Part shown: piece by piece, positions 39,745 to 50,946 of the stretch
Layout: each line of letters starts with the position of its first letter
Numbering within the stretch: position 1 is the stretch's first letter
Source: Sphingomonas paucimobilis
GTDB taxonomy: Bacteria; Pseudomonadota; Alphaproteobacteria; Sphingomonadales; Sphingomonadaceae
NCBI GenBank assembly: GCA_036946325.1
Contig: JAQIJL010000001.1
Span: forward strand, 1,578,630-1,642,629
Length of the DNA: 64,000 nucleotides
Direction of reading: 5' to 3'
Position numbers and translations under genes: made by a program
The notes under the pieces: generated by a model
Seen by the model: the letters and a program-made list of their open reading frames with translations, nothing else
Told to the model about the DNA's origin: nothing
Databases searched by the model: none

Positions 39745-40889
39745 CGCACTGCCGGCGACACACCGCCGCGCGTATCGACCCGCGCCTCGACCGACATGCC
39801 GGGGCGCAGTCGCTGGAACAACGGGTCGTTGCGGTCGATCGCGATGCGCACCGGAATGCGCTGCGCCACCTTCACGAAATTGCCGGTGGCATTGTCGGCG
39901 CGGATCACCGCGAACTCGTTGGCGGCGGCCGGCGCGATCCGCTCGACCCGCCCGTGCAGTTCGGCACGGTCGAGCGCGTCGACCCGGATCGTCGCGGGCT
40001 GGCCCGGTGCGATCCGCGCGGTCTGCGCTTCCTTGAAGTTCGCGGTGACCCACACGGTCGGCGGCACGAGGAACATCATCTGCGTACCCGCCGTAACATA
40101 TTGGCCCAGCCGCACGCCGACCTCGCCCAGTCGCCCGTCCTGCGGCGCGCGGATGACGGTGTTGGCAAGGTCGATCTCCGCCAGCCGGACCGCGGCTCGC
40201 GCATTCTCGACCGCCGCGCTCAGCCCGCCGCGCCCGACCGTCACCGTGCGCACCTGTTCCTGTGCGACGCTGCGCTGCGCCTGCGCCTGTGCGACGCCGG
40301 CCTCCGCCGCGCGCAGGGCGGCCAGCGTCTGGTCGCGTTCGCGCAGCGACACCGACCCTTCGCGCACCAGATCGTTGACTCGCGCCATGTCCGCCTGCGC
40401 CCGCGCCAGCTGCGCCCGCGCATTCTGCACCGCCGCCGCCTGTCCGCCGAGGCTCGCCTCGCTCGACCGCTCGCTCTGCTGCGAATTGGCGAGGTTCGCC
40501 TGTTGCGCGGCCAGCTGCGCGCGGGCCTGCTCGACCCGCTGGCGATAGATACGGTCGTCGATCCGGGCGAGGACCTGCCCGCCCTTCACATCCTGAAAGT
40601 CGCGGACCAGCACCTCGGTAACATAGCCGTTGACCTGTGGCGCGATGATCGTCGTCTGCCCGCGGACATAGGCATTGTCGGTCGCCTGGATCGCGCTGCC
40701 GAACGGCCACAGCCCCCACGCATAGAGCGCCAGCGCCACCCCGCCCAGCAGCAGCGCGACGAACCCGATCGTCGACTTGAGGCTACCGCGCGGCGGCGCC
40801 CAACCGCGCGCCTTGGTCGGCTCCTCCGGCACCTCGACCGGATCGGCCAGCCGTTCTGCTTCGTCTCGGGATAACTGGGTATCGGTCAT
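39741..40889 (-). CDS. HlyD/EmrA-family membrane fusion protein
   Basis: TDNAYVRG, APQVNGYV, ANFKEAQ, NATGNFVKVAQRIPVRI. Confidence 0.93.
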   Translation of the reverse strand: MTDTQLSRDEAERLADPVEVPEEPTKARGWAPPRGSLKSTIGFVALLLGGVALALYAWGLWPFGSAIQATDNAYVRGQTTIIAPQVNGYVTEVLVRDFQDVKGGQVLARIDDRIYRQRVEQARAQLAAQQANLANSQQSERSSEASLGGQAAAVQNARAQLARAQADMARVNDLVREGSVSLRERDQTLAALRAAEAGVAQAQAQRSVAQEQVRTVTVGRGGLSAAVENARAAVRLAEIDLANTVIRAPQDGRLGEVGVRLGQYVTAGTQMMFLVPPTVWVTANFKEAQTARIAPGQPATIRVDALDRAELHGRVERIAPAAANEFAVIRADNATGNFVKVAQRIPVRIAIDRNDPLFQRLRPGMSVEARVDTRGGVSPAVR

Positions 40890-42550
40890 GACATCTGCTT
40901 CTGTCGCATCTGCTGTACGGCGGCCAGATCGCCGGCGAGCGGGTTCACGCCCTTCAGGCGGTAGCGCAGCCACAGCGCGCCCAGCCACACGACCATCGCC
41001 GCCGACAGCAGGGCGACGCCGAGGAACACGTCGTTATAGGCGAGGATATTGGCCTCGCGCGTCACCTGCTGCCCCAGCAACCCCGCGCCCGACGCCTGTC
41101 GCAGCGCCGGATCGCCGAGCACGCGGGCATAGGCGCCGCCGAGCTGCTGGATACGCTGCACCACCATCGGGTCGGTCGCGGTCAGGTTCTGGGTCAGTTC
41201 GAACGCGTGATATTTCTCGCGCACGATCTGGAACGATCCCAGCAGCGCGGTGCCGGCCAATCCGCCCATCGTCTGCGAAATGCCGAAGATCGCGGAGAAA
41301 CTGATGATATGGCTCGGCCCGCGCGCCAACGCGCGGAAAACCCCGATCATGATCATCGGTCCCAGGAAATAGAGCGCGGCGAAGGCGATGATCCCCTGGC
41401 TGACATACAGGCTCGACGGCCGGGTCAGGTTGGTCGAATCCGAATCCATCCATGCGCCGAGGCCGATCAGCGCGACGGCGATCACCACCGGCTTGTACAA
41501 ATCCTGCATGTTGAGCGTCTTGAGGCTGACCGCGACCCCGGCGATCGATGCCAGCACCATGACAAGGCTCAACGTCACCAGCTGGTCGTTGCCCATGCCG
41601 ACGACGGTCAGCAGCCCGACCGTGCCGAACGTCTGTTCGGACAGCAGGATACGCAGCGACGCCGCGACGATCGCGAAGCGGATGATGTTGCGCCCCAGCA
41701 TCCAGCGGGTGTTGAGCAGCGGGTTGGCGCGATTATGCTCGATCAGCAGCGCCCCGCCGATCAGCGGGATGGCGGCGGCGGTGGCATAGCCCAGCCACGG
41801 CGTCGACCACCATTGGATCCGCCCCTGCACCAGCACCGCACACAGCAGCGCGACGCCGGGCGCGAGCAGCGCGAAGGTGAGGAAGTCGATCTTCTCGAAC
41901 GCCGGCGTCCGTTCCGATGGCGGCAGTCGCAGCAGTGCGACTGCGCCCAGGCACATCAACGTCAGCCCCAGTTCGAACCAGAACAGCGCCTCGATCCGCC
42001 CGTCCGCCAGCAACAGCGGCGACAGCGTGCGCGCGAGCGGCAGCGCCACCTGCGACGCGCCGAACCCCATGATCATACCCGACAGCCGCGCGGCGGCGGG
42101 CAGCGCCTGCATGATGTAGAGGAAGCACAGGGTCGTCAGCGCGCTGGCTACGATGCCCGACGCGCCACGCACGATCAGCTGCACGCCATAGCTGTGGACG
42201 ACCAGCTGCAGGATATTGAGGATCAGGAACGCGGCGAGGAACACGCGCGTGAAGCGCTGCATCCCGAATTGCTGGCGGAACTTGATCAGCAGCATCGACA
42301 TGCACACGCTGGTCATCGACGAAATCGCGGTCAGCCACCCGCCCTGCACCGGCGTCAGTCCCAGCGATCCCTGTATCTGCGGCAAATTCGCGATCAGCAG
42401 CCCGTTGCTGAACCCACCGGTCACGCCCAGCAGGATGCCGGTCGCGAAATAGCCGACCCGCCGCCCGAACGGATGATCGGGCGTCGCGGGGGAACCGGGC
42501 AGGAACGGCCGCTCGTGCGGCTTGAATTCATACGCCGGGGCGATCGCCAT
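40886..42550 (-). CDS. MFS efflux permease (EmrB/DHA2-like)
   Basis: About 14 hydrophobic segments, KFRQQFG, EHNRANPLL, VTREANILAYNDVF. Overlapping operon with MFP and OMF. Confidence 0.88.
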   Translation of the reverse strand: MAIAPAYEFKPHERPFLPGSPATPDHPFGRRVGYFATGILLGVTGGFSNGLLIANLPQIQGSLGLTPVQGGWLTAISSMTSVCMSMLLIKFRQQFGMQRFTRVFLAAFLILNILQLVVHSYGVQLIVRGASGIVASALTTLCFLYIMQALPAAARLSGMIMGFGASQVALPLARTLSPLLLADGRIEALFWFELGLTLMCLGAVALLRLPPSERTPAFEKIDFLTFALLAPGVALLCAVLVQGRIQWWSTPWLGYATAAAIPLIGGALLIEHNRANPLLNTRWMLGRNIIRFAIVAASLRILLSEQTFGTVGLLTVVGMGNDQLVTLSLVMVLASIAGVAVSLKTLNMQDLYKPVVIAVALIGLGAWMDSDSTNLTRPSSLYVSQGIIAFAALYFLGPMIMIGVFRALARGPSHIISFSAIFGISQTMGGLAGTALLGSFQIVREKYHAFELTQNLTATDPMVVQRIQQLGGAYARVLGDPALRQASGAGLLGQQVTREANILAYNDVFLGVALLSAAMVVWLGALWLRYRLKGVNPLAGDLAAVQQMRQKQMS

Positions 42551-42580
42551 GGCTCCATATGGGGATATTGATCGAGCAAC

Positions 42581-42605
42581 AACTTGTCACGGAACCGATC
42601 GTTCC
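42581..42605 (-). promoter_or_regulatory. Putative sigma-EcfG promoter of the MFS-MFP-OMF-GNAT operon
   Basis: Minus strand GGAAC-gatcggttccgtgacaa-GTT (N17), about 30 nt upstream of ATG 42550, which has a GGAG RBS. Confidence 0.7.
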
Positions 42606-42777: not shown

Positions 42778-44550
42778 ATGCGTATCCTAATCCTCGCCGC
42801 CGCGCTCCTCGCCTCGACCGCCACCGCCCAGATTCCGCTCGAAGCGCCCCTGCCCCCGGTCCGCCCGTGGCACGGCGCCAGCGAGAAGCTGGTCGCGAAG
42901 CCCGCCGATCCGTGGATCACCCCGGCGGAGGCGAGCGGCTTCGTCACCACGCCCGATTATGCCGCGACCCGCGCATGGATCGACAAGCTGGTCGCCGCGT
43001 CGCCGCTGCTGTCGATCGAGACGTTCGGCAAAAGCCCGCAGGGGCGCGATCTCTATGCCGTCCGGGCGCACAAGGGCGCGACGCCCAAACCGGCCGTGCT
43101 GGTGCAGGCCGGCATCCATTCGGGCGAGATCGAGGGCAAGGATGCCGGACTGATGCTGCTGCGCGACATCGCGCTGCGCGGCAAGGACCGGCTGCTCGAC
43201 AAGGTCGATCTGGTGTTCGTGCCGATCTACAATGTCGACGGCCATGAACGCTCCAGCCCCTTCAACCGCCCCAACCAGCGCGGGCCGAAGGACATGGGCT
43301 GGCGCACCACCGCGCAGAATCTGAACCTCAACCGCGACTATCTGAAGGCCGACGCGCCGGAGACGCAGGCGATGATCGGCCTGATCCGCCGGATCGACCC
43401 GATCCTCTATCTCGACCTGCACGTCACCGACGGCATCGACCACCGCTATGACGTGACCTATGCCTTTTCGGGCTGGCGGGGCTATTATGCGCGGTCGGCA
43501 GCGATCGGGCGGTTCCTCGACACGCGGCTGCGCCCGGCGATGGATACGGCACTCAGGCGGAACGGCCATATTCCCGGCTATTATGTCAGCACGCTCGACA
43601 ATCGCGCGCCGGAGAAGGGCATGACGCAGGACGTCGATACGCCGCGTTTCTCGACCGGCTATGGCGATGTCGCGCATATCCCGACCGTGCTGGTCGAGAC
43701 GCATTCGCTCAAACCCTATCGCCAGCGGGTGCTCGGCACCTATGTCTTCGTCGAGGAATCGCTGCGACTGGCGGGCGAGCGCGCGGGCGAACTGCGCGCC
43801 GCGATCGATGCCGACCGCGCCATCCGCCCGACGACCGTCACGACCTCGTGGAAGCAGACGCCGGAGCCGATCTACCGCGTCGATTTTCTGGGGTTGGCGC
43901 ACGACACCTATCGCTCGCCCGCCTCGGGCCGCGACGAACTGCGCTGGCTGGCCAAGCCCGTCACCTTCAAGATGCCGGTCTATGGCAGCAATCCCGACAA
44001 GACCGTCACGCTGCCGCGGGCATGGTGGGTGCCCGCCACCCTGCCGCATGTCATCGACCTGCTGAAGCTCCACGGCGTGACCGTCGAGCCGATCGCGGCC
44101 CCGCGCACGCTCGACCTCGACATGGCGCGCGCGACCGATCCGAAGCTCGGCCGCGCCAATGAAGGCCATATCCCGCTGGAGGCGACGATCGTCCATGAAC
44201 GCCGCCGCGAAACCATGCCCGCGGGATCGGTCCGCGTCCCTGCCGACCAGCCGCTGGGCCTGCTGGCCGCCTTCCTGCTCGAACCCGAAAGCGAGGACGG
44301 CGTGCTCGCGTGGAACCTCGCGCCCGGCATGCTGCAACGGACCGAATATATCGAAGGCTATGCGATCGCGCCGCTCGCCGACCGGATGCTGGCGAACGAT
44401 CCGACGCTCAAGGCGGCGTTCGACGCCAAAGTCGCCGCCGACCCGGCCTTTGCCGCCGATCCGACCGCACGGCTGCAATGGTTCTATGCCCGCACGCCTT
44501 ATTATGACGAAAGGTTTCTACTGTATCCGATTGGACGCGAGGTGAATTGA
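42778..44550 (+). CDS. Secreted M14 zinc carboxypeptidase
   Basis: Signal peptide. Motifs GIHSGEIEG (HxxE), NLNRD, YLDLHVTDG. Confidence 0.92.
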   Translation: MRILILAAALLASTATAQIPLEAPLPPVRPWHGASEKLVAKPADPWITPAEASGFVTTPDYAATRAWIDKLVAASPLLSIETFGKSPQGRDLYAVRAHKGATPKPAVLVQAGIHSGEIEGKDAGLMLLRDIALRGKDRLLDKVDLVFVPIYNVDGHERSSPFNRPNQRGPKDMGWRTTAQNLNLNRDYLKADAPETQAMIGLIRRIDPILYLDLHVTDGIDHRYDVTYAFSGWRGYYARSAAIGRFLDTRLRPAMDTALRRNGHIPGYYVSTLDNRAPEKGMTQDVDTPRFSTGYGDVAHIPTVLVETHSLKPYRQRVLGTYVFVEESLRLAGERAGELRAAIDADRAIRPTTVTTSWKQTPEPIYRVDFLGLAHDTYRSPASGRDELRWLAKPVTFKMPVYGSNPDKTVTLPRAWWVPATLPHVIDLLKLHGVTVEPIAAPRTLDLDMARATDPKLGRANEGHIPLEATIVHERRRETMPAGSVRVPADQPLGLLAAFLLEPESEDGVLAWNLAPGMLQRTEYIEGYAIAPLADRMLANDPTLKAAFDAKVAADPAFAADPTARLQWFYARTPYYDERFLLYPIGREVN

Positions 44551-44608
44551 CGGGTTGCCTACTCCAATGGACATAGCGGCGGAATTGAACGAATTCTGAC
44601 GGCCAACC

Positions 44609-44704
44609 CGTTATCCCCGCGAAGGCGGGGATCCATAGACGCCAAGGTAACGGATCAAACCACAACCGCTGCGTCTATGGATTCCCGCCTTCGCGGGAAT
44701 GACG
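44609..44704. repeat. CGTC-type REP dimer (gcgaaggc loop)
   Basis: cgttatccccgcgaaggcggggatccatagac...gtctatggattcccgccttcgcgggaatgacg. Confidence 0.85.
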
Positions 44705-44752
44705 ATCCGGGCCGATAGGCCACGAACAGAACGCGATGGAGAGCCTGACCTC

Positions 44753-45463
44753 ATGACCGCCCCTTCGATCATCGTCGTCGAGGACGATCCCGCGCTGCGC
44801 ACCCTCACCGCCCGCGCGCTGCAGGAAAATGGCTATCACGTTCGCACCTGTTCGGCGGCGCCTGAAATGTGGCTGGCGCTGGAACAGGGGCCGGTCGACC
44901 TGATCCTGCTCGATATCATGCTGCCGGGCACCAGCGGCATCGACCTGTGCCGCCAGATTCGCCAGAACAGCAGCGTGCCGATCATCTTCGTGTCCGCCAA
45001 GGGCAGCGAGGTCGACCGCGTGATCGGTCTCGAACTCGGTGCCGACGACTATCTGCCCAAGCCGTTCGGCACGCGCGAGTTGATCGCCCGCGTCCGTGCC
45101 GTCCTGCGCCGGGGCGAGCTGAACGCCCAGACCGCGCAGCGCGAGGAGGGCATCTACAGCTTCGAAGGCTGGACCGCGAACGTGCCCCGCCGCGAACTGA
45201 CCTCGCCTACGGGCGCGCAGGTCGACCTGACCGGCGCCGAATTCGACCTGCTGGTCGTGCTGCTCGACCATGCGCAGCGCGTCATCGCCCGCGAACGGCT
45301 GATCGAGCTGTCGCGCACCCGGCTGGGCGACAGTTCGGACCGCAGCATCGACGTGCTCATCAGCCGGCTGCGCCGCAAGCTGTCGACCGCCGGCGGCACG
45401 CCACCGATCGTCACCGTGCGCGGCGTCGGCTATATGCTGAACGTACCGGTGGAACGCCGTTGA
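44753..45463 (+). CDS. OmpR-family response regulator
   Basis: VVEDD, LLDIMLPG, GADDYLPKPF, DRSIDVLISRLRRKL, TVRGVGY. Confidence 0.95.
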   Translation: MTAPSIIVVEDDPALRTLTARALQENGYHVRTCSAAPEMWLALEQGPVDLILLDIMLPGTSGIDLCRQIRQNSSVPIIFVSAKGSEVDRVIGLELGADDYLPKPFGTRELIARVRAVLRRGELNAQTAQREEGIYSFEGWTANVPRRELTSPTGAQVDLTGAEFDLLVVLLDHAQRVIARERLIELSRTRLGDSSDRSIDVLISRLRRKLSTAGGTPPIVTVRGVGYMLNVPVERR

Positions 45464-46797
45464 AGCGTTTCACGGCGCTGCCGGTGGGGCTGATCGGCCG
45501 GATCGTCGCGATCCTGCTGTTGACCATCGTCATCGAATTCGGCGTGTCGGTGCTGCTCTACGAACGCGCCAGCCAGTTTTCGGTGCGCGACGACGAGGCG
45601 CGCCGCCTCGCCGAACATCTCGTCATCGCGCGGCGCATCGTCGAGGAACGCCCGATCGTCGAGCGCGCCGGCATGGCGACCGAGCTGACCACCGAACGCT
45701 ATGCCGTGCAATGGCGCGGCACGGCCCCCGAACTGCCGGCCAGCGGCACCGAATTGCGTGAGATGGAGCAGCAGATCCTCGCATGGGAGCCGAGCCTCGC
45801 CCCCACCGGCCTGCACCTGACGCTGATCGGTCAGGGGCGACGATCGGTGGTCAGCGGCGCGCTCCAGCTGGAGGATGGCAGCTGGCTGTATTTCCGCACC
45901 TTGGAACCGCTGCGCGCCTTCGACCTCGCCATCGGCCGCATCCTGCTGGCGCTGATCCCCGCCATCGCGCTGATGGTGGTCGGCGGGCTGCTGATCCGCC
46001 GGACGCTGCGGCCGATGCGCCAGCTCGCCGATGCGGTCGACCGCTTCGGTCCCGGCGGCGGATCGACCCTGCCGACCATCGAGGAAGCGGGACCGGGCGA
46101 GGTGCGCCGCCTCGTCGTCGCCTTCAACGGGTTGCAGGCGCGTATCCACCGGCTGATCGACGAACGCACCCGCGCGCTTGCCGCCGTGGGGCACGACCTG
46201 CGCACCCCGCTCGCCCGGCTGCGGCTGCGCACCGATGCGATCCCCGACCGCGACCTGCGCGACACGGTGCAGAACGACCTTGCCGAAATGGAGGCGATGG
46301 TCACCTCGCTGCTCGCCTTCCTGGGCGGGGAGAGCGAGCCGGAACGCGCGGTGCTGGTCGACATCGCGGTGCTGTGCGCCAGCATCGTCGACGATGCCGC
46401 CGACCATGGCCATGAAGCGACCTATGACGGCCCCGACCATTTCGAACGCGCGGTCCGCCGGTCGAATTTCCGCCGCGCCGTCGTCAATCTGGTGGAGAAT
46501 GCGGTCCATTATGGCGGCAGCGTCACGCTGACCCTCGCGGTCGAGGATGGCGCGACCGTTATCCGGGTCGAGGATGACGGCCCGGGCATTCCCGACGAAT
46601 CGCTGGCCGATGTCCTCGAACCGTTCGTCCGCCTCGACACCGCCCGGAAACGCGACACGGTCGGCTTCGGCCTCGGCCTGTCGATCGTTCAGCGGGCGGC
46701 GGAGGCCGAAGGGGGCCGGCTGGAGTTGCGCAACCGCGCCAGCGGCGGGCTGTGCGCCGCGATCATTCTGCCCGCACCTTTCGCGCCACGGCAATAA
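45460..46797 (+). CDS. EnvZ-like sensor histidine kinase
   Basis: TTG start overlaps the RR stop. Two TM helices, HAMP, GHDLRTPL, NLVENA, DDGPGI, GFGLGL. Confidence 0.93.
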   Translation: MKRFTALPVGLIGRIVAILLLTIVIEFGVSVLLYERASQFSVRDDEARRLAEHLVIARRIVEERPIVERAGMATELTTERYAVQWRGTAPELPASGTELREMEQQILAWEPSLAPTGLHLTLIGQGRRSVVSGALQLEDGSWLYFRTLEPLRAFDLAIGRILLALIPAIALMVVGGLLIRRTLRPMRQLADAVDRFGPGGGSTLPTIEEAGPGEVRRLVVAFNGLQARIHRLIDERTRALAAVGHDLRTPLARLRLRTDAIPDRDLRDTVQNDLAEMEAMVTSLLAFLGGESEPERAVLVDIAVLCASIVDDAADHGHEATYDGPDHFERAVRRSNFRRAVVNLVENAVHYGGSVTLTLAVEDGATVIRVEDDGPGIPDESLADVLEPFVRLDTARKRDTVGFGLGLSIVQRAAEAEGGRLELRNRASGGLCAAIILPAPFAPRQ

Positions 46798-46895
46798 TTC
46801 GTTACACAGCCGCCGAACGCAGCAAGGTTGCATCGGCTATATCCCAATGTGAACCGGTGGCCCCAAGCCGCTGAAACGGTTTGGAGGGAGAGACG

Positions 46896-47591
46896 ATGAA
46901 CGACGTGATCGGCCGGGTGTTCGGTTTCGAAAAGGACGTGTTCGGCAGCGATGCCGACCTCTATTCGAAGCTGGCGACCGACGGGCAAAGCCCGAAGGTC
47001 CTGATGATCTCGTGTTCGGACTCGCGTGTCGTCCCCGAACATGTCCTGCAGGCGAAGCCGGGCGACGTATTCGTCATCCGCAACGCCGGCAACATCGTAC
47101 CCCCCTTCACCCAGCAGAATGGCGGTACGACCTCGACGGTCGAATATGCCGTCGCGGTGCTGGGCGTGACCGACATCATCGTGTCGGGTCATTCGGGCTG
47201 CGGCGCGATGGGCGCGCTGATGAAGCCGGAAACGCTCGACGGCCTGCCCAGCGTCGCCGCGTGGCTGCGCCACAGCCACGCCGCCCATTCGGTGGTCGAA
47301 AACAGCTATCCCGATCTCGACGACGCCGCTGCGGTCCGTGCCGCCAGCCTCGAAAACGTCGTGGTCCAGATTTCGCACCTGCGCACCCATCCGGCGGTCG
47401 CGTCGCGCATCGCCAAGGGCGAGCTGACGCTGCACGGCTGGTTCGTCGACATCCATGCGGGCACGATCCTCGCACTGGACGGCGAAACCGGCCGCTTCGC
47501 GCCGATCAAGCAGGATCGGGCATTGCCGGTGGCGCTGCCCGCCGCCAAGCGCCTCGCCGCGGATTTCGTGACGGCGGAAGCCGCCGAGTAA
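46896..47591 (+). CDS. Beta-class carbonic anhydrase 1 (CynT-like)
   Basis: CSDSRV, RNAGNIVP, VEYAV, GHSGCGAM. GGAGGGAG RBS. Confidence 0.94.
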   Translation: MNDVIGRVFGFEKDVFGSDADLYSKLATDGQSPKVLMISCSDSRVVPEHVLQAKPGDVFVIRNAGNIVPPFTQQNGGTTSTVEYAVAVLGVTDIIVSGHSGCGAMGALMKPETLDGLPSVAAWLRHSHAAHSVVENSYPDLDDAAAVRAASLENVVVQISHLRTHPAVASRIAKGELTLHGWFVDIHAGTILALDGETGRFAPIKQDRALPVALPAAKRLAADFVTAEAAE

Positions 47592-47653
47592 CCAGTTCCT
47601 GCGGGTTGGCGGGGCGAATCTTCCCTCCCCCGTTCCGCCGGCCGTGGGTTCCG

Positions 47654-47687
47654 CGCCGGGCGTGCTTCCCCCAAGCACGTCCGGCGC
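47654..47687 (+). other. Strong intra-cluster hairpin between CA1 and SulP
   Basis: cgccgg-g-cgtgctt-cccc(c)-aagcacg-t-ccggcg. No clear U-tract. Confidence 0.6.
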
Positions 47688-47714
47688 ACCCTGTTTCAAA
47701 GGCTATCGACCGCC

Positions 47715-49307
47715 ATGTCGTCGCAACCCTCGCTCATTGCCAATCTGAGGCAGGACATTCCCGCCTCGATCGTCGTGGCGCTCGTCGCATTGCCGCTCTG
47801 TCTCGGCGTTGCGCTCGCCTCGGGCGCCCCGCTCTTTTCCGGGCTGATCGCCGGGATCGTCGGCGGCATCGTCGTCGGGTCGCTCAGCAAGTCGCCTTTG
47901 TCGGTCAGCGGCCCTGCCGCCGGCCTGACCGTGATCGTGCTCGACGCGATCACCAAGCTGCCGAGCTTCGACGCGTTCCTGCTCGCCGTGTTCCTCGCGG
48001 GCTGCATGCAGATCCTGCTGTCCTTTTCGCGCTCGGGCGTGCTCGGCGAATTCGTGCCCTCGTCGGTCATCACCGGCATGCTGGCCGCGATCGGCCTGAT
48101 CCTGATCCTGAAGCAGGTGCCGCACGCGATCGGCTATGACGGCGATCCGGGCGGCGACTTCGCCTTCAGCCAGGGCGACGGCCTCAACACCTTCAACACC
48201 ATCCTGTTCGTGCTGCGCGAACAGGTCGTCTGGGGCGCGACGATCATCGCCGCGATCAGCATCGCGTTCCTGTTCTGGTGGGACAAGAACAAGCCCAAGG
48301 ACGGCCCGTTGCGCTTCGTTCCCGGCCCGCTGGTGGTCGTGGTCGGATCGGTCGCGATCAACGCGCTGCTGGGCGTCGTCGCGCCCGCCATCCAGGTCAA
48401 GTCGACCCATCTGGTCAGCGTGCCGATCGCCGATGGGCTGGGCGGTTTCGTCAAGCTGTTCAGCCTTCCCGACTTCGGCCAGATCGGCAACGTGACCGTA
48501 TGGACCGTCGCCGTCACCCTCGCCATCGTCGCCAGTCTCGAATCGCTGCTGTCGGTGAAGGCGGTCGACGAACTCGACCCCAAGCGCCGCGTGACGAACA
48601 AGAACCACGAATTGCTGGCGCAGGGCGGCGGCAACATCATCTCGGGCCTGATCGGCGGCCTGCCGGTCACCTCGGTCATCGTGCGGTCGTCGGCGAATGT
48701 CGACGCCAATGCCGCGTCGAAGATGTCGACGATCCTGCACGGCACCTGGCTGCTGCTCAGCGTCCTGCTGGTCCCGACGTTGCTCAACCTGATCCCGCTA
48801 TCGGCGCTGGCCGCGGTGCTGATCCAGACCGGCTATAAATTGACCAAGCCCGAGCTGTTCACCAAGCGCTGGAAACAGGGCATGACCCAGTTCGTGCCGT
48901 TCGTCGTGACGATCGCCGCGATCCTGTTCACCGACCTGCTCAAGGGCATCGTCATCGGGCTGGTCGTCGGCTTCATCTTCGTCATCGCCCGCAATTTCCG
49001 CCCCGCGGTGACGTTCGTGCAGGACGGCGAAGGCCCCGGCGCCAGCTGCATGGTCCGCGCCAAGCGCAACCTGTATTTCATCCACAAGGTCGAACTGACC
49101 AAGGAACTGGAAAAGGTGCCGGACGACTGCACGGTCGTGATCGACCTGTCGGCGACCAGCTATGTCGACCTCGATAATATCGACATCATCAACGGCTTCA
49201 TCAAGAATGCGCAGTATCGCAATATCGACGTGCTGGTGCGCGGCGATATCGGCGACAAGACCGCGCCGCAGATCAAGGCGCCGCGCAAGGAGGTCGCCTA
49301 CGCATGA
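47715..49307 (+). CDS. SulP/SLC26 anion (probably bicarbonate) transporter with STAS-like C-terminus
   Basis: VALPLCLGVALASG, VSGPAAG, ELLAQGGGN, TSVIVRSSANV, IPLSALAAVL. Confidence 0.93.
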   Translation: MSSQPSLIANLRQDIPASIVVALVALPLCLGVALASGAPLFSGLIAGIVGGIVVGSLSKSPLSVSGPAAGLTVIVLDAITKLPSFDAFLLAVFLAGCMQILLSFSRSGVLGEFVPSSVITGMLAAIGLILILKQVPHAIGYDGDPGGDFAFSQGDGLNTFNTILFVLREQVVWGATIIAAISIAFLFWWDKNKPKDGPLRFVPGPLVVVVGSVAINALLGVVAPAIQVKSTHLVSVPIADGLGGFVKLFSLPDFGQIGNVTVWTVAVTLAIVASLESLLSVKAVDELDPKRRVTNKNHELLAQGGGNIISGLIGGLPVTSVIVRSSANVDANAASKMSTILHGTWLLLSVLLVPTLLNLIPLSALAAVLIQTGYKLTKPELFTKRWKQGMTQFVPFVVTIAAILFTDLLKGIVIGLVVGFIFVIARNFRPAVTFVQDGEGPGASCMVRAKRNLYFIHKVELTKELEKVPDDCTVVIDLSATSYVDLDNIDIINGFIKNAQYRNIDVLVRGDIGDKTAPQIKAPRKEVAYA

Positions 49308-49939
49308 GGGAATACAAGCACCTGCTCCTCGCCAACAAGGCATGGGCCGCCGAACGGCTGGAGGACAATCCCGATTATTTCGCGCGGCAGATCGTCGGGC
49401 AGCAGCCCGAATTCCTGTGGATCGGCTGTTCCGACAGCCGCGTCGCACCGGACCAGCTGACCAATACCGAACCGGGCGGAATGTTCATTCACCGCAATAT
49501 CGCCAATCTGGTCGATCCGGGCGACCAGAATTTGATGTCGGTGGTGCAGTTCGCGGTCGAGGTGCTGAAGGTCGGCCACATCATCGTGTGCGGCCATTAT
49601 GCCTGTGGCGGCATTCAGGCGGCACTGGAAGGCGGCGTCGACGGCCATGTCCATGACTGGCTGGCGATCGCCCGCCAAGTGGTCGAAAACCACCGCGAGG
49701 AACTCGACGCCCTGCCCGAGGATCAGCGCGCCAACCGTCTGGTCGAACTGAACGTCCACGACCAGCTGGTGCAGCTCGCCCGCACCGACGTGGTGCAAAA
49801 GGCGTTCGCGAGCGGCCAACCGCTCGAACTCCATGGCTGGGTCTACGACCTGCGCGACGGGCTGCTCAAGCCGCTGATGGAAATCGACGCGACGACGCCG
49901 CTGGAAGCGGTAACCAAGCCGGACAAGGTGCTGGTCTGA
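49304..49939 (+). CDS. can: Beta-class carbonic anhydrase 2 (Can/YadF-like)
   Basis: WIGCSDSRV, HRNIANLV, CGHYACGGI, LVELNV, HGWVY. ATGA overlap with SulP. Confidence 0.93.
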   Translation: MREYKHLLLANKAWAAERLEDNPDYFARQIVGQQPEFLWIGCSDSRVAPDQLTNTEPGGMFIHRNIANLVDPGDQNLMSVVQFAVEVLKVGHIIVCGHYACGGIQAALEGGVDGHVHDWLAIARQVVENHREELDALPEDQRANRLVELNVHDQLVQLARTDVVQKAFASGQPLELHGWVYDLRDGLLKPLMEIDATTPLEAVTKPDKVLV

Positions 49940-50021
49940 TATGGGCGATCGTCGCGACGCCAAACTCACAAGGACGGGCACCTTGTGAGACCGGAACCTG
50001 ATCCATCCCGTTCGAATCAGG

Positions 50022-50104
50022 CGTCATCCCAGCGAAGGCTGGAATCTCCCGGTTATAGCGCGGAGCAATAGCCACGGGAGACCCCGGCCTTCGCCGGGGT
50101 GACG
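50022..50104. repeat. CGTC-type REP dimer
   Basis: cgtcatcccagcgaaggctggaatctccc...gggagaccccggccttcgccggggtgacg. Confidence 0.85.
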
Positions 50105-50145
50105 CCGTCTGGAGGCGCGGCACAAGGGCCACGACTGCACGCCTC

Positions 50146-50946
50146 TTAGCCCGCCATCGTCATCACCGACCCCGAATCCACCCGCAAATTCGCGCCGTTG
50201 ACGAAGCTCGCCGGCTTCGACACCAGGAACAGGATCGCCGCCGCGACCTCTTCCGCCGTGCCCCGCCGGCCCAGCGTCATGCCGGGGCGTTCTTCCTTCA
50301 GGAAACTCTTGATCGCATCGTCGCGATCGGTGCCCTGTTCCTCGGCCCGCTTGTCCATCATCGCATCGGTCATCGGCGTCGCGATGAAGGCGGGCGACAC
50401 GCTGTTCACCAGCACATTGTCGCAGCCATAGGCCTTCGACAGCCCCTTCGCCAGATTGAGTAGCCCGGCCTTGGACGCACAATAGGCCAGTTCGTCGACA
50501 TAGGGCTGTACCGCATCTTCCGACGCGATCAGCACGATTCGGCCGCCGCCCTTGCGCATCGCCGGAATCGCCTCGCGCGTCACCCGCACCGCGCCCATCA
50601 GGTTGATGTCGAGCGTCGACTGCCACCCGGCATCGTCGACCTCGAGGAAATCGCCGGTCGCCCCGGTCACGCCCGCCGCATGGACGAGGATCGTCGGATC
50701 GCCCAGTTTCCCGCGCACCTGTTCGAACAGCGCCTTGACGCTCGACAGGTCGGTCACGTCGGCGGCCACCGCCACCACCTCGCCATGTTCGGCCAGTTCG
50801 GCGCGGACCTTCTCCAGCGCGTCGGGGTCCTGATCGCTGATCGCGACCCGCGCACCTTCCTGCAACAACATCCGCGCCGTCTCGCGCCCGATGCCGCTAT
50901 CCGCCCCCGTCACAAGCGCCAGCGCGCCGCCCAGTCCATAATCCAT
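50146..50946 (-). CDS. Short-chain dehydrogenase/reductase
   Basis: TGADSGIG, YCASK (YxxxK), NSVSP, VNGANLRVDSG. Confidence 0.93.
   Translation of the reverse strand: MDYGLGGALALVTGADSGIGRETARMLLQEGARVAISDQDPDALEKVRAELAEHGEVVAVAADVTDLSSVKALFEQVRGKLGDPTILVHAAGVTGATGDFLEVDDAGWQSTLDINLMGAVRVTREAIPAMRKGGGRIVLIASEDAVQPYVDELAYCASKAGLLNLAKGLSKAYGCDNVLVNSVSPAFIATPMTDAMMDKRAEEQGTDRDDAIKSFLKEERPGMTLGRRGTAEEVAAAILFLVSKPASFVNGANLRVDSGSVMTMAG

Follow-up and report, generated by a model that had tools for sequence, protein, structure and literature searches.

The sensing of CO2 and bicarbonate in non-photosynthetic bacteria is poorly understood, and the known regulators of inorganic carbon (Ci) uptake are mostly of the LysR type and come from autotrophs. 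The cyanobacterial BicA is a SulP-family Ci-uptake carrier that is induced by low Ci, with CcmR and CmpR as its LysR-type regulators. Pairs and fusions of SulP transporters with carbonic anhydrases (CAs) are already known, as is a β-CA within a two-component regulon (psCA1 in that of BqsSR; PMC12802237). Microsynteny and fusions of SulP with can2 have been reported, and in A. ferrooxidans the cluster transcript drops as CO2 rises (PMC6458275); Rv3273 of M. tuberculosis is a SulP-β-CA fusion (Felce and Saier 2004, cited in PMC6458275). The locus described here lies in a 64,000-nucleotide stretch of the Sphingomonas paucimobilis genome (the window) and consists of five co-oriented genes, in which a response regulator (RR) and a sensor histidine kinase (HK) precede a β-CA (CA1), a SulP transporter and a second β-CA (CA2). 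In relatives the two-component pair is inherited with CA1 and with a 16-bp operator-like box, and the layout seen in the window is put together from two modules that are conserved separately. The five genes are read here as one regulatory unit that would handle Ci under two-component control, a reading whose chances of being right or wrong we judge to be about even. The features of the cluster, in window coordinates, are as follows.

44753-45463, + strand: RR of the OmpR/PhoB family, receiver and winged-helix domains (Response_reg, Trans_reg_C)
45460-46797, + strand: EnvZ-like HK, with a first transmembrane segment, a periplasmic domain of ~125 amino acids, a second transmembrane segment, HAMP, HisKA (His245) and HATPase_c
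46791-46806, + strand: candidate operator-like box GCAATAATTCGTTACA, two GNNACA half-sites 10 bp apart, overlapping the HK stop codon; proposed RR site
46819-46842, + strand: second conserved segment, putatively of a promoter, found in the box-anchored conservation profile, with GCAGCAA at 46819-46825 and a -10-like CTATAT at 46837-46842
46896-47591, + strand: CA1, a cytoplasmic type-I (plant/CcaA/CynT-like) β-CA; Pro_CA 158.4 bits (cut-off 25.7), E = 2e-46
47598-47687, + strand: two stable hairpins in the CA1-SulP spacer, with C-rich loops CUUCCCUCCCC and CCCCC; fold z = -4.1
47715-49307, + strand: SulP/SLC26-family anion transporter of class 1, putative HCO3- carrier; Sulfate_transp PF00916, 186.2 bits (cut-off 23.2), E = 1e-54
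49304-49939, + strand: CA2, a type-II (Can/HICA-like) β-CA; Pro_CA 172.7 bits (cut-off 25.7), E = 9e-51

The genes were typed using the profile cut-offs of Pfam and NCBIfam, which agree with the open reading frame listing that the five co-oriented genes proposed in a first-pass annotation of this DNA are real. The RR matches PF00072 with 106.2 bits (1.4e-30) and PF00486 with 72.3 bits (3.4e-20) and belongs to the OmpR/PhoB family by its combination of a receiver with a Trans_reg_C domain. The HK starts with a TTG codon that overlaps the RR stop as TTGA, and its own stop lies 98 nt from the CA1 ATG, close to the 100 nt that the annotation had put between the RR/HK pair and CA1. Also as annotated, the SulP stop and the CA2 start overlap as ATGA, which suggests translational coupling of the two genes. 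The transporter falls within the SulP/SLC26 family, with a weak C-terminal STAS match (19.3 bits, cut-off 22.6), and is 91-97% identical to the SulP proteins of the Sphingomonas hankookensis/panni/"Leaf" group. All five proteins fall short of the NCBIfam equivalog cut-offs (OmpR, EnvZ, Can, BicA, DauA, sulP); the RR scores best against OmpR (NF007005, 209.5 versus 331 bits), the HK has 184.9 of the 415 bits set for EnvZ (NF007004), and CA2 has 211.6 of the 251 bits set for Can. The whole genome encodes three β-CAs and a single SulP.

The two CAs had been annotated as different β subtypes with intact motifs and no signal peptide, and both the motifs and the structure matches bear this out. The catalytic motifs read from the translations are CSDSR and HSGCG in CA1 and CSDSR and HYACG in CA2, so that each combines a Pro_CA match with the Cys/His/Cys zinc ligands and the Asp-Arg dyad of a β-CA, and neither has a hydrophobic N terminus. 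The nearest structures to CA1 are of the plant/CcaA type (5swc, E = 3e-50, and the pea enzyme 1ekj), and Met and Val occupy the positions of Trp39 and Tyr181, which sets it outside type II. CA2 is nearest to E. coli Can, H. influenzae HICA and the Porphyridium CA (194 bits to 1i6o), and counting on the translation places W39, R64 and Y181 at numbers identical to those of Can/HICA, making it type II. These three residues, in the E. coli Can/HICA numbering, form the allosteric, non-catalytic bicarbonate pocket. A third, stand-alone β-CA of ~207 amino acids (CSDSR/HGACGG) is encoded outside the window at C1:898498-898980 with no box in its vicinity; as a putative housekeeping enzyme it might hide the phenotypes of CA1 or CA2 mutants.

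Gene neighborhoods were compared in 250 genomes spread over the GTDB Sphingomonadaceae (251 genomes in the occurrence counts). Close relatives with more than 90% identity keep the entire neighborhood and are hence uninformative on linkage. Beyond these, the SulP matches split sharply into a class 1 (SulP1) found in ~20 genomes and 64-74% identical to the window protein, a class 2 (SulP2) at 34-39% identity and a third class at ~30%. Wherever flanking sequence is available, a CA2 orthologue comes next after the SulP1 gene, and most of these SulP1-CA2 loci have neither a two-component system nor CA1 within 8 kb. Full-length HK orthologues, 39-65% identical with the sensor domain included, are instead placed ~850-900 nt upstream of SulP2 genes. 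In ~46 of the 250 genomes an HK orthologue adjoins a CA1 gene, a SulP gene or both, and the 40 loci fetched around HK orthologues have the order RR-HK-CA1-SulP2 in 33 cases, RR-HK-SulP2 in 2, RR-HK-CA1 alone in 4 (each in a genome with SulP1-CA2 elsewhere) and RR-HK alone in a few. The CA1 orthologues, taken at 51% identity or above, are tightly linked, with 44 out of 44 located within 3 kb of the HK gene and 43 directly downstream of it. Remoter CA1-like genes (42-49% identical) are paired with SulP2 in 5 genomes and have no two-component system. The gaps between CA1 and SulP2 are short, 18-96 nt between alignment ends or 0-51 nt between open reading frames in six loci, and the adjoining of sulP and β-CA genes is conserved across taxa. 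More than 30 GTDB genera retain the linked two-component system despite changed flanks.

The complete order RR-HK-CA1-SulP1-CA2 is found in the window, in S. floccifaciens and in a third lineage (G232), each with different flanks, and S. jejuensis has RR-HK-SulP1-CA2 without CA1 and with its own distinct flanks. In the maximum-likelihood tree of the HK proteins, the window kinase groups with those of S. jejuensis and S. floccifaciens in a clade (support 100/99) that is nested among kinases of the SulP2 type, and G232 is located in a distant clade (100/99) as sister to a SulP2-type genome. The SulP1-linked kinases thus occupy two distant, well supported clades, and therefore SulP2 has been replaced by SulP1-CA2 at least twice. 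Judged by gene order and this tree, the conserved units are RR-HK-CA1-SulP2, often with a TorF-type porin gene (module A), and SulP1-CA2 (module B), and the layout of the window is a derived fusion of the two. The repeated swap argues that SulP2 and SulP1-CA2 are functionally interchangeable units behind the same promoter. Genomes with SulP1-CA2 are enriched for the two-component system (12 of 21 versus 35 of 230, p = 4e-5).

The first-pass annotation had proposed a regulated CO2/bicarbonate circuit and a survey of synteny as a check on it. The two-component system is syntenic with the CA genes in relatives, as the ~46 genomes and the 44 CA1 orthologues show, and with the box described below this upholds the part of the proposal that ties the regulators to the CA and SulP genes. 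The other part, two CAs bracketing one transporter as a single unit, gives way to the two modules. A wider spread of the module over the Alphaproteobacteria was considered and rejected, the nearest HK homologues outside the family (35-42% identical, in a class sample of 400 genomes) having no CA or SulP neighbor. The pair was also considered as the general EnvZ/OmpR orthologue and rejected as such, being present in only ~19% of the family genomes with scores below the cut-offs.

The spacers between HK and CA1 cannot be aligned across the loci save for one 16-bp block, G[C/A]AA[C/T]A-N-TT-N-[C/G/T]TTAC[A/G], which contains 22.9 bits of information over 16 nt with flanks close to 0 bits. The two half-sites of this box are phased by 10 bp, the geometry of sites for the OmpR/PhoB family. 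The box is located at the HK stop in 39 of 46 loci, with 63-102 nt (median 88) between its end and the start of CA1. In aligned loci ~13 nt separate the box from GCAGCAA and ~11 nt more separate this from a -10-like CTAnnT; in the window the box is placed ~45 nt upstream of the -10-like element and ~90 nt upstream of CA1, and the predicted transcription start falls around 46848-46852. The window box is the top site of the 3.78-Mb genome at 28.8 bits, a ranking that is partly circular since the matrix was built from 33 sites with the window's own among them. A generic scan for sigma-70 promoters and terminators performed no better than on shuffled sequence. In one genome of the same genus (L048 of G195), ~1.5 kb is inserted between HK and CA1, and the box has stayed just upstream of CA1 and is not at the HK stop.

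The box also occurs away from the kinase. Of the genomes with unlinked SulP1-CA2 pairs, 8 of the 11 that have the two-component system show it upstream of the pair, against 0 of the 6 that lack the system (Fisher p = 0.009), where a box was counted at 13 bits or more within 200 nt upstream of SulP1, with a chance rate of 0.002 per locus. Examples score 28.9 bits (G046) and 22.5 bits (G011), and some are in inverted orientation. Within module A loci, additional boxes are ~10 times more frequent than expected, many of them upstream of the RR gene and often facing away toward genes for small secreted proteins. These proteins (92-216 amino acids; loci L050, L083, L046, L063 and L082) are encoded near the RR gene, mostly divergently and downstream of inverted boxes. 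The two that were tested (L050 and L063) have no Pfam match, and the group may be accessory periplasmic partners of the sensor. Elsewhere in the window's genome, further matches of 20-25 bits occur at C3:60 (= C1:379), C2:104846, C1:574049 and C3:537130, none of them ahead of an obviously related gene (C2:104846 lies between lepA and an esterase gene). The regulon looks reduced in this genome, where neither the RR gene nor the two porin homologues have a box ahead of them. From the synteny and the distribution of the box, the regulatory link between the two-component system and the CA and SulP genes is well supported.

The proposed mechanism starts from a periplasmic cue, on which the EnvZ-like membrane HK would phosphorylate the OmpR-family RR. 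The phosphorylated RR would bind the box at 46791-46806 (GNAACA-N4-GTTACA) at about -50 and activate a CA1-SulP-CA2 transcript. SulP would then carry HCO3- over the inner membrane, and the two cytoplasmic β-CAs would interconvert HCO3- and CO2, with the type I CA1 presumably always open and the type II CA2 gated by bicarbonate or pH. The likely purpose would be to supply bicarbonate for carboxylations where CO2 is scarce, or to buffer the cytoplasmic pH. We infer the binding of the RR to the box, the activation, the co-transcription of three genes, the bicarbonate substrate and the CO2/HCO3-/pH signal; for the last two it is the gene association and the published CA-SulP cases that point this way.

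Several observations weigh against the proposed unit. The box is assigned to this RR by position and co-occurrence only, and the matrix search finds no box upstream of the RR gene in this genome. A strong 15-bp hairpin between CA1 and SulP, with a T7 tail on its S. floccifaciens counterpart, could terminate transcription and so split CA1 from SulP-CA2. SulP falls well short of the equivalog cut-offs for BicA, DauA and the sulfate permease and the genome leaves room for a role in sulfate uptake, the sensor model matches no fold significantly and offers no hint of a ligand, and two porin homologues in the genome lack a box; these three points are taken up with the proteins concerned. If the five genes were neighbors by accident, the two-component system would be a general regulator of osmolarity or envelope state unrelated to the CA and SulP genes. 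The missing box at the RR gene would fit such a regulator, and the conserved neighborhood of the close relatives says nothing either way. The HK is absent from ~80% of the family genomes, however, and so is not a housekeeping protein, the linkage persists with changed flanks in more than 30 genera and for every CA1 orthologue, and the box co-occurs with the two-component system even at unlinked loci. An accident is highly improbable and is contradicted by the synteny and box data.

The sensor domain of the HK, ~residues 35-155, has family-specific motifs in the ortholog alignment (LYERAS-FSVREDEARRLAEHLV, LTT-RY-V-W, WEP-L and DGSW) and the invariant residues R69, L113, G133 and F145; T78, E110 and P111 are conserved as well. 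The AlphaFold model of the sensor (31 orthologues, pLDDT 86) consists of a long helix leading into an α/β domain. The EnvZ model NF007004 aligns with HK residues 166-439 only, leaving the sensor domain without sequence similarity to EnvZ. The fold search with the sensor model gives no significant match, the best meaningful one being the RisS periplasmic domain (3te8) with a TM-score of 0.46 and E = 0.13. In a set of 5.8 billion proteins, all organism-named matches are from sphingomonads bar one (a metagenome-assembled "Proteobacteria bacterium"), and no match has a specific function name.

These properties bear on what the HK senses. It may be a dedicated periplasmic sensor of CO2 or bicarbonate that, with its OmpR-type partner, switches on a complete Ci route across the envelope of heterotrophic sphingomonads, made up of a TorF porin, SulP and the β-CAs. 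This is a tentative reading on the doubtful side; if it is true, no earlier two-component system is known that senses Ci directly and governs its uptake. The same genes could serve pH homeostasis and not carbon supply, with the HK sensing external pH or envelope stress and SulP importing HCO3-, whose dehydration by the CAs consumes a proton while CO2 leaves the cell; under alkaline stress the cycle would be reversed. Esparza et al. put forward just such a proton-consuming cycle for can2-sulP (PMC6458275), and the EnvZ architecture of the HK, the pH/bicarbonate-gated type of CA2 and the RisS match, whose database entry is titled 'at low pH', fit as well. The RisS match does not reach significance, however, the resemblance to EnvZ does not extend to the sensor sequence, and no sequence feature discriminates pH from Ci as the signal. 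We consider pH homeostasis unlikely as the main function. The preferred reading remains that of a unit for Ci under two-component control.

The substrate of SulP is the second point at which the readings part. Against NCBIfam, the transporter has 168.8 bits for DauA (cut-off 614), 165.2 bits for the sulfate permease TIGR00815 (cut-off 380) and 103.7 bits for BicA (NF050096, cut-off 880), and the class-2 SulP of relatives has 93.7 bits for BicA. Among solved structures the fumarate carrier SLC26Dg (5da0) comes nearest. The genome encodes CysDN, CysH and CysI with no CysTW permease above cut-off, where the best match of the search is ModB adjoining ModA, and SulP is the lone member of its family. 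From these data SulP might carry sulfate or another anion such as dicarboxylate, oxalate or thiosulfate, perhaps exchanging it for HCO3-, with the CAs handling the counter-ion and the two-component system reporting a shortage of that anion. SLC26 proteins include sulfate/bicarbonate exchangers, and DauA and the sulfate permease outscore BicA. Every equivalog cut-off is nevertheless missed by a wide margin. In the family, CysTW is found in 66 genomes and a SulP of any class in 84, and 131 of 251, more than half of those sampled, have neither; another route of sulfate entry is therefore common. CysTW shows no anticorrelation with the CA-linked SulP modules (33% versus 24%, p = 0.18), and the replacement of an absent sulfate ABC transporter by SulP was rejected for want of such a family-wide anticorrelation. 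Nor is it easy to explain without Ci as substrate or co-substrate why SulP genes of two classes, with only ~35% identity between them, each overlap or abut the gene for a β-CA of a different type. A system for sulfate or another anion is distinctly unlikely. HCO3- is favored as the substrate or co-substrate because CysTW shows no anticorrelation, both SulP classes are coupled to CAs and can2-sulP cases have been published; anion/HCO3- exchange by SulP is possible.

In ~11 loci of relatives a gene for an outer-membrane porin of the TorF/Gcw_chp family (PF09694, E = 2e-55), preceded by a box, follows SulP2. Porin genes downstream of SulP2, often with a box of their own, are present in L044, L046, L047, L051, L053, L077-L080, L082 and L083. 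The porin may take the anion across the outer membrane on this same route. Two TorF-porin homologues are encoded elsewhere in the window's genome (C2:844719-845480 and C1:642185-642988), and neither has a box ahead of it. Regulation of a porin is typical of OmpR-type systems that respond to the envelope, and a further explanation has the HK sensing a cation or envelope cue (Ca2+, Fe2+) with the CA and SulP proteins serving carbonate chemistry or ion homeostasis, much as psCA1 does within BqsSR/CarSR. The BqsSR regulon of P. aeruginosa as listed in PMC12802237 includes psCA1 (PA0102), and the titles of papers link psCA1 to calcium carbonate mineralization. The exclusive linkage to CA1 suggests a dedicated regulon as opposed to a broad one, and no metal-handling genes are conserved in the module, which leaves a cation cue improbable beside the preferred assignment to Ci.

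The two hairpins of the 123-nt CA1-SulP spacer persist, loops as well as stems, throughout the four SulP1-linked lineages, among them G232, whose fusion arose independently, and some of the changes are compensatory. From its sequence the structure may be an attenuator, a terminator, a processing site, a stability element or a small RNA (sRNA) derived from a 3' untranslated region. The C-rich loops resemble an anti-Shine-Dalgarno sequence, and in S. floccifaciens the second hairpin is trailed by T7. A scan of 44300-50400 against Rfam gave matches below threshold only; CcsR1 ('cuckoo' sRNA) scores 16 bits at the spacer, well below its threshold, and the palindromes of the flanking repeats matched microRNA models as sub-threshold noise. 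The features around the cluster are the following.

40886-42550, - strand: MFS transporter gene, weakly DHA2-like, upstream of the cluster
42576-42591, + strand: weak box copy GCAACAACTTGTCACG, 14.2 bits, between the divergent MFS and M14 carboxypeptidase-like genes
42778-44550, + strand: M14 carboxypeptidase-like gene, downstream of the weak box
44612-44705, no strand assigned: REP/MITE-like palindromic repeat at the upstream cluster boundary; 29 blastn-short genome alignments including the self-match
50020-50110, no strand assigned: second REP/MITE-like palindromic repeat at the downstream cluster boundary; 136 blastn-short genome alignments

The repeats have the sequence tCCCgCGAAGGCgGGgATC ... 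CCCGCCTTCGCGGGaATGACG, and partial copies, from dozens to more than 100 in number, are dispersed through the genome. Just downstream of the cluster an SDR gene (50146-50946) is found in some close relatives only. At the same position between the MFS and M14 genes, the close relatives L002 and L010 have a box of 19.5-19.6 bits, and the membership of the weak box of the window in the regulon is uncertain. Homologues of the window MFS protein (50-60% identical) are encoded near the module in three other lineages, and G070 (L051) has the order RR-HK-CA1-SulP2-porin-MFS, in which the MFS protein is homologous to that encoded upstream of the cluster in the window.

The kinase/regulator pair is strictly inherited with a carbonic anhydrase over more than 30 genera and comes with a 16-bp candidate operator. 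Genomes with and without the system and the two independent transporter swaps are natural experiments, and taken with the pair and the box they open the question to direct tests. The comparison also speaks for a part in Ci traffic of both distant SulP classes and, possibly, of a porin of the TorF family. The system is a tractable candidate for bacterial sensing of Ci or pH. Sphingomonads of this group are common leaf colonizers, for which fluctuations in CO2 or pH would be a plausible cue, although this is speculation. The supposition of the first-pass annotation that sphingomonads have no characterized equivalent agrees with the literature, where a search found no CA/SulP system under two-component control and no sphingomonad study; a full-text search found no description of a dedicated two-component system co-inherited with a CA/SulP operon, of the operator, of the two-module structure or of the link to a porin.

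The cluster shares features with four described systems. Like can2-sulP of A. ferrooxidans and Rv3273, it has a SulP carrier adjoining or fused to a cytoplasmic β-CA with a predicted movement of bicarbonate; those systems have one CA and no dedicated regulator, whereas the sphingomonads combine two CA types with a linked system of the OmpR/EnvZ type, a conserved candidate operator and, in relatives, a porin. The CA-linked SulP clade of Esparza et al. (clade C) is not fused to STAS, unlike the other clades, and the window SulP has its weak C-terminal STAS match (PMC6458275). The likeness to BicA ends with the SulP family, as the score of the window protein is far from the BicA cut-off, control would be by a two-component and not a LysR-type regulator, and the host is a heterotroph without a carboxysome. 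With E. coli EnvZ/OmpR and the RisS/RisA of Burkholderia and Bordetella the pair has in common a kinase with two transmembrane segments, a periplasmic domain, HAMP and a kinase core, together with a winged-helix regulator; EnvZ/OmpR further resembles it in the 10-bp-phased GNNACA half-sites and in the porin gene among the putative targets in sphingomonad relatives. It differs from EnvZ/OmpR in its scores below the equivalog cut-offs, in a sensor unrelated in sequence, in its presence in only ~19% of the family genomes and in having CA and SulP genes as putative targets. In P. aeruginosa the SulP gene PA0103 is the neighbor of PA0102. The gene of psCA1 is, as in the sphingomonads, a β-CA gene under a two-component system of the OmpR family (PMC12802237). 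BqsSR is encoded elsewhere in its genome, senses Fe(II)/Ca2+ and has many other targets, whereas the sphingomonad system adjoins the CA operon and is strictly co-inherited with it.

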